Shown: positions 1 to 440 of the stretch, piece after piece
Layout: every line of letters starts with the position of its first letter
How positions within the stretch are numbered: the stretch's first letter is position 1
Origin: Escherichia coli
GTDB lineage: Bacteria > Pseudomonadota > Gammaproteobacteria > Enterobacterales > Enterobacteriaceae
DNA: 440 nucleotides
NCBI RefSeq assembly: GCF_003334385.1
Contig: NZ_QOWN01000181.1
Strand: one strand, 5' to 3'
Notes under the pieces: model-generated
What the model was told of the DNA's origin: nothing
The model's input: only the letters and a program-made list of their open reading frames with translations
Database searches by the model: none
Translations under genes and position numbers: made by a program

Positions 1-440
1 GCCGTGGTGTGGACGCCCGTCAGCCTTCCCGTGTCGCTGTAACGGTACTCCCGGCTCTCCTGCGGGCCGCTGATGCGGATTAGCTGTCCGTTGTCGTTCC
101 AGTCGTAGTCACGGTCAAGCTGCGGAAGGTTCAGGTGCCTGCTCCGGAGCTGGCCGCTGGTATTCCAGGCGGTGGCAAGTTCATATGCCTCCCCGCCGAA
201 GCTGCGGGCCGTCTCACGGTGCAGCCTGTCCCGCGTGTACTCGACCAGCGGTGTTCCGCCCAGCTTCATCCCCGCAAGATAACCGCTGCCATACGTCAGC
301 CACTCCACCGGCGGCAGACCGTCCGGCTCCTGACGGGTCGCCAGCCCCTGTTCGCTGTACGCATGCCCCGTCTCATGCTCCCACAGCATCTCCCCCGTCT
401 CCGGGTTCTCCACCGTCTGCCGTTCGCCCGTCAGGCGGCC
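1..440 (-). CDS. rhs: Rhs family protein, internal fragment of the conserved YD-repeat core (partial at both ends; N-terminus toward higher coordinates, C-terminus toward lower coordinates)
   Basis: Seen in sequence: the minus-strand frame starting at base 440 is open for 146 codons (bases 3-440 in frame, bases 1-2 a partial codon), and all five other frames contain stops. Third-position GC is about 83% (121 of 146 codons end in G or C). The translation contains YD-repeat motifs (EYRYSDTGRLTGV, DRDYDWNDNGQLIRIS, GRLTGE) and the block VEWLTYGSGYLAGMKLGGTPLVEYTRDRLHRET, which I recognise from memory as part of the E. coli Rhs core. The family call is established knowledge plus recall, not a database search. 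Which paralogue (rhsA, B, C, D or another) cannot be decided from this fragment. Confidence 0.92.

Follow-up and report, generated by a model that had tools for sequence, protein, structure and literature searches.

A YD-repeat segment of a T6SS-linked Escherichia coli Rhs shell, with a probable YkuD-type tip and lipoprotein-like immunity candidate beyond its low-coordinate edge

The window (the whole 440-nt stretch of DNA analysed here) is traversed on the minus strand by a single open frame (frame 0), which runs from base 440 to base 3 and comprises 146 codons without a stop; the five other frames are all interrupted by stops. The frame has neither its start nor its stop codon inside bases 1–440 and stays open in only 1.9% of composition-matched (mononucleotide) shuffles. 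The G+C content of the window is 66.6%, rising to 83% at third codon positions. We rejected the possibility of a non-coding or plus-strand feature, because an Rfam scan of both strands with permissive E-values matched no family and the plus strand holds only ORFs of 36 amino acids or fewer.

The window peptide matches the NCBIfam profile NF041261 (RHS_core, 'RHS element core protein') with an E-value of 3.5e-78 at profile positions 756–905 of 1261. Pfam RHS_repeat (PF05593) was matched with an E-value of 1.5e-5 by residues 114–145, which form the best-kept repeat pair (Table 1), and TIGR01643 (YD_repeat_2x) gave 13.9 bits over residues 114–146 of the window alone, just below the 15.8-bit cut-off. 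The whole-protein cut-off of RHS_core (2000 bits) is out of reach for a fragment of 146 residues. A phmmer search against PDB sequences aligned the peptide with Tse5 (PDB code 8cp6, residues 673–802), RhsA (PDB code 7q97, residues 887–1026) and PDB entry 8qja, with E-values from 3.5e-7 to 6.1e-7. At the DNA level, a match to the window is present in 3,708 of 5,426 complete genomes, with 550 records at least 99% identical, and chromosomal genes that are 100% identical carry the annotation 'RHS element core protein' or 'RHS repeat-associated core domain-containing protein'. The window corresponds to residues 761–906 of the 1,410-residue Rhs protein WP_066008979.1 of E. coli NCTC86. It is practically certain that the window is part of a conserved GC-rich Rhs core. 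An earlier note, made from the letters of this DNA, had placed it on the minus strand in the middle-to-late part of such a core and looked to Rhs or YD-repeat matches for confirmation; the profile positions, the open minus frame and the strong matches bear it out.

Table 1. Features of the window and of the corresponding locus of E. coli NCTC86 (L003)
Feature	Sequence	Coordinates	Strand	Basis
Internal fragment of rhs core (YD-repeat shell) ORF	window	1..440	-	Open frame, RHS_core profile, 100% identity to annotated rhs genes
Best-kept YD (RHS) repeat pair, YDWNDNGQLIRI and YRYSDTGRLTGV	window	6..101	-	Pfam RHS_repeat PF05593
Degenerate repeats of the shell, with the conserved PPVEWLTYGSGYL segment among them; alignable to the shell wall in Rhs cocoons of solved structure	window	102..440	-	phmmer against PDB
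rhs gene	L003	6721-10953	+	
Counterpart of the window	L003	9001-9440		
Core-end motif PIRYTDPLGL	L003	10462-10491		
130-aa ORF	L003	10931-11323		
Poly-G run in 130-aa ORF	L003	11137-11144		
Direct repeat of ~40 nt, first copy (acgtgatgctgattttttgcactaaataattcgc)	L003	about 11366-11410		Seen by eye
Direct repeat of ~40 nt, second copy (acgtaacgctgattttttgtactaaataattcgc)	L003	about 11618-11660		Seen by eye

For everything outside bases 1–440 we infer from public genomes in which the window is identical or near-identical. The gene order in the NCTC86 locus is tssB, hcp, vgrG, rhs, the 130-aa ORF, an ISAs1 transposase, yafV, ivy and fadE, and the other flank, read in strain CFSAN061761, carries dnaQ, tRNA-Asp and yafT. 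The rhs gene of the window sits directly after hcp and vgrG in a T6SS cluster between tRNA-Asp/yafT and yafV-ivy-fadE. The vgrG gene is bona fide, its product scoring 629.8 bits against TIGR03361, and vgrG also lies upstream of rhs in the loci L004–L006. The suggestion that vgrG or hcp would be found on the high-coordinate side of the window thus agrees with NCTC86, where both directly precede rhs. The label 'T6SS-1' for this cluster was dropped because E. coli rhs genes have been placed in T6SS-2-type clusters (PMC10711316), and no assignment to a historical Rhs subfamily (RhsG, RhsH or RhsI) was made; one in silico study of EHEC uses those names differently. In the spacer between the 130-aa ORF and the ISAs1 transposase, the direct repeat listed in Table 1 possibly represents ISAs1/H-rpt boundary sequence.

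The full-length NCTC86 protein scores 2487.6 bits against RHS_core over residues 4–1257 and 159.7 bits against YD_repeat_2x in six stretches. The Rhs-associated core domain (TIGR03696) covers residues 1180–1257 with 80.9 bits (cut-off 32.5 bits), and Pfam RHS (PF03527) is matched with an E-value of 2.1e-13. A Pfam scan of residues 1–420 gave DUF6531 and RHS repeats only, with no PAAR domain. By eye alone, the first ~45 residues appear PAAR-like.

The conserved core ends with the motif PIRYTDPLGL (residues 1248–1257), the last codon of which lies 1,051 nt beyond window base 1, and both the RHS_core and the Rhs_assc_core profiles terminate exactly at residue 1257. G+C content is 0.628 in the core; it drops to 0.435 over the codons of the 153-aa tip and to 0.328 in the ORF downstream. 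A query consisting of the window and all downstream sequence through the 130-aa ORF was searched against all E. coli genomes and was matched over at least 80% of its length in 778 of them. In the other genomes among the matches listed, the core match stops at about query position 1420–1458 (in most rows 1454–1458), and position 1458, equivalent to L003 10458, immediately precedes the PxxxxDPxGL codons. The earlier note had anticipated a core-to-tip junction 0.5–1.5 kb to the left of base 1, an abrupt fall in G+C content and similarity after it and a small ORF right after rhs as the immunity candidate. Each has its counterpart in the matching genomes: the motif at 1,051 nt, the stepwise loss of G+C with similarity ending at L003 10454–10458, and the 130-aa ORF, which shares its first 23 nt with the end of rhs, stop codon included. 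Nor does the frame close soon after leaving the window, an outcome that would have told against the Rhs reading; it continues for 504 further codons in eight of the nine genomes examined that contain the exact 440 bases, and in the ninth (L001) it is frameshifted in the tip. A core fragment of 440 bases is therefore sufficient to locate the toxin junction precisely. Between alleles with different tips, similarity is lost ~33–37 nt short of where the PxxxxDPxGL codons end (L003 10454–10491), and G+C content is already dropping within L003 10401–10500. It would thus seem that the codons of the motif move together with the tip cassette and not with the core.

The tip in the exact-window genomes is a 153-residue domain with an L,D-transpeptidase fold (YkuD; PF03734). 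It carries a conserved His…Gly-Cys-Thr-Arg motif and so has the catalytic histidine and Gly-Cys-x-Arg motif expected of the YkuD fold. The Pfam match is weak. When PDB sequences were searched with the tip, by phmmer and by profile, the matches were Rhs core-end segments of relatives and chance matches only, with no toxin domain, and the fold was therefore established through a predicted structure, which is of moderate confidence (block pLDDT of 58–72 around the catalytic loop). The best fold matches of the model are L,D-transpeptidases and L,D-carboxypeptidases acting on stem peptides, and the His, Cys and Arg of the catalytic site are conserved. Two marks of the Tlde1/DUF2778 group (PF10908), a DUF2778 profile match and the short His–Cys spacing typical of Tlde1a, are both absent from the tip, and an NCBIfam search assigned no family to the tip or to the 130-aa ORF. 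The same tip was found in Shigella sonnei records. The earlier note had put any novel toxin beyond the low-coordinate edge; a tip is indeed found there, but it is not novel, since NCBI already has a name for this L,D-transpeptidase-fold domain and its occurrence on Rhs proteins was predicted in 2012.

Distant relatives of the tip (43–53% identity across the set) include some stand-alone proteins of ~196 residues in metagenome contigs (L013, 2940–5190; L016, 3991–5243). In L013, the relative consists of a Sec-like signal peptide fused to an Rhs core-end segment (…DPIGL…DPxGL) and a YkuD domain, with no YD shell, and its gene comes after a Transglut_core2 gene. Each stand-alone relative is followed by an ORF of 197–202 residues with a signal peptide, and these ORFs are related to one another (E-value of 1e-11). 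A BLASTP comparison of the E. coli immunity candidate with the ORFs after the distant tip relatives gave no similarity.

The 130-aa ORF begins with MNVLRHVNAINMGVCILIWVIG|C, a lipoprotein signal with a lipobox-like …LIWVIG|C as judged by eye, and its only family match is a weak one to DUF4367. It is likely to encode a periplasm-facing immunity lipoprotein. A poly-G run within it, ~1.7 kb past window base 1, differs in length between genomes. Among ~1,015 E. coli genomes with this segment, 719 have G8, which leaves the ORF intact, and 184 and 14 have G7 and G6, respectively, both of which are frameshifted, with the ORF annotated as two pieces. A frameshift at this run affects the immunity candidate in no fewer than about 20% of genomes. 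A G10 run occurs in the O157:H16 strain 98-3133. The variation may represent either homopolymer sequencing error or real slipped-strand variation. Strain EC2 (L012; NZ_CP058571.1, positions 1–4322) has an apparently intact rhs gene (WP_000508723.1) beside an immunity ORF split by G7. With a functional toxin and no immunity gene, this strain would harm itself, unless the homopolymer is misassembled or the T6SS is silent.

Taken as a whole, it is very probable that the window is a piece of a T6SS-linked Rhs shell, with a YkuD tip and a lipoprotein immunity ORF beyond its low-coordinate edge. The 146 residues encoded by the window are YD-repeat strands of a toxin-enclosing shell, structural in role and with no toxic activity. 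By analogy with Rhs and Tc-toxin shells, they would form part of a closed shell around the C-terminal toxin; as in other such systems, the Rhs protein would be mounted on the VgrG spike, to be injected by the T6SS into an adjacent cell, and an aspartyl autoprotease region at the core end (…DPIGL…PIRYTDPLGL) would cut the tip free. In the periplasm of the target cell, the tip would most likely act as an L,D-carboxypeptidase or exchange enzyme that trims or exchanges the fourth residue of peptidoglycan stem peptides; the lipoprotein from the 130-aa ORF would block it in sibling cells. [quoted passage not shown]

How far a tip can be named from a fragment of core depends on the closeness of the match. 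In all nine genomes examined that contain the exact window, the DPxGL end lies at 1,051 nt and is followed by the same YkuD tip, which differs by at most one residue in eight of them (in the one pair listed, E28 in NCTC86 against G28 in ML35) and is frameshifted internally in L001. At the same vgrG-rhs locus, windows that are 95.5% (PEC1011), 97.5% (EC21Z-144) or 98.2% (O157:H7 JEONG-1266) identical lead to other ends: a 240-aa tip in PEC1011 and, in JEONG-1266, a tip of 157 residues with an ankyrin-repeat gene after it. The tips of L004 and L006 are unrelated to that of NCTC86. Naming the tip from this window is possible because the match is exact, alleles only 2–5% apart having unrelated tips, and we consider it highly likely that the YkuD tip lies beyond this particular window. 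These alleles are also an argument for the alternative that the window derives from a mosaic allele of the locus with a different, non-YkuD C-terminal toxin, as is the finding that the cores themselves are mosaic: L001 and L002 equal NCTC86 from about L003 8803 onward and diverge upstream. Given the nine concordant genomes, such an allele is very unlikely; among the matches listed, core-only matches begin at 93.9% identity, and at most ~60 other records could pair an identical core with another tip. In the mosaic cores, L001 and L002 show many clustered differences from L003 at about 7425–8800 and are identical to it from there through the tip, a pattern consistent with recombination inside the core. 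The orphan tip/immunity cassettes mentioned in the earlier note are not present after rhs in NCTC86 but do occur in a different allele, L006 (5072–7420; JEONG-1266), where the allelic rhs and its ankyrin-repeat gene are followed by an N-terminally truncated rhs fragment. L001 (2076–6881; strain 300709) has a tandem module upstream of its window-bearing rhs, made up of hcp, a partial rhs followed by a 125-aa ORF of its own, ISEc1 and 'RHS element protein dsORF-h1'; this module is displaced or orphan and lies on the upstream and not the downstream side.

A further question is whether the gene is still in working order. The exact-window rhs copies are annotated as pseudogenes in six of nine cases, so that the source copy may make no toxin. 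Four lack the N-terminus (4,089 nt remain in L002, L007 and L009, and 3,663 nt in L008) and two, L001 and L010, are frameshifted; the two remnant lengths suggest at least two independent deletions. In both of the upstream flanks read, L002 (5549–10953) and L008 (1–3953), the truncated rhs abuts a truncated tssM/IcmF, and a 21-kb rhsG-tssM deletion, which these remnants resemble, is reported to be fixed in E. coli ST410-B/H24 (PMC10711316). However, rhs is intact in the remaining three genomes (NCTC86, BUCT2930 and EC2), and the window itself shows no stop or indel relative to intact copies. The chances that the window comes from a decayed remnant, left by T6SS deletion or frameshift and without a deliverable toxin, therefore seem evenly balanced; such a relic would concern the state of the same gene and not a different identity. 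As to what an intact tip would do, a peptidoglycan mechanism is modestly favoured. It is unlikely, though less so than a mosaic allele, that the YkuD tip departs from Tlde1-like action on stem peptides and attacks another L,D bond, such as the Lpp–peptidoglycan link cut by DpaA, or a target other than peptidoglycan, since its best fold matches are stem-peptide enzymes and its catalytic His, Cys and Arg residues are conserved. More doubtful is the proposal that these tips form a clade of peptidoglycan-directed, periplasmic Rhs toxins as yet untouched by experiment, with canonical YkuD spacing distinct from that of Tlde1a/DUF2778 and with immunity switched by slipped-strand mispairing of the poly-G run (G6/7/8/10).

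The feature in the window is already known and annotated. RefSeq carries annotation for the core and, in broken copies of the gene, for the tip as well, and an L,D-peptidase toxin class on Rhs proteins was predicted in 2012 (PMC3482391). As a textbook piece of E. coli Rhs shell, the window has little discovery value in itself; interest at the locus would lie in its YkuD-type Rhs tip, so far uncharacterised, in the lipoprotein partner of the tip and in the poly-G run of variable length that the partner carries. The literature searched yielded no paper in which this E. coli Rhs-YkuD tip had been studied experimentally.

The NCTC86 gene shares with E. coli Rhs elements (NF041261) a common architecture of a DUF6531 N-terminal plug, a YD-repeat shell, an Rhs-associated core ending in PxxxxDPxGL and an AT-rich variable tip, together with a small overlapping ORF downstream and an ISAs1 (H-rpt) element. 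The best match listed in K-12 genomes is rhsD, with only ~82% DNA identity over the last 1.45 kb of the core, and the K-12 rhs copies do not lie inside a T6SS cluster, whereas the gene of the window does, directly after hcp and vgrG. A gene in such an arrangement, the vgrG-linked gene of the chromosomal T6SS of ST410, has been named rhsG in one paper (PMC10711316), and its deletion leaves rhs and tssM remnants like those of L002 and L008; the likeness is one of gene order only, and identity of the locus is inferred from it. Zhang et al. (2012; PMC3482391) described polymorphic toxins in which RHS repeats bear an L,D-peptidase tip; these resemble the NCTC86 gene in combining an Rhs shell and a tip with the thiol L,D-peptidase fold with a linked immunity gene, for which the 130-aa ORF is the candidate here. 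The Tlde1/DUF2778 superfamily also has Rhs-fused members, such as WP_052983304.1 of Shigella sonnei, and of the genomes with one Tlde1 subfamily, 11% are reported to have a member joined to an Rhs protein (preprint 10.1101/2020.02.18.954545). Among solved Rhs cocoons, namely RhsA of Pseudomonas protegens (PDB code 7q97), Tse5 of P. aeruginosa (PDB code 8cp6), Tse15 of Acinetobacter baumannii (PDB code 8uy4) and an Rhs protein of Salmonella bongori (PDB code 8qjc), the tips differ from that of NCTC86 and sequence identity is low (E-value of about 1e-7 for the window). Nevertheless, these structures can be aligned with the window peptide as well as with the core end, which supports a shell that is closed and cleaves itself at its C-terminal end.
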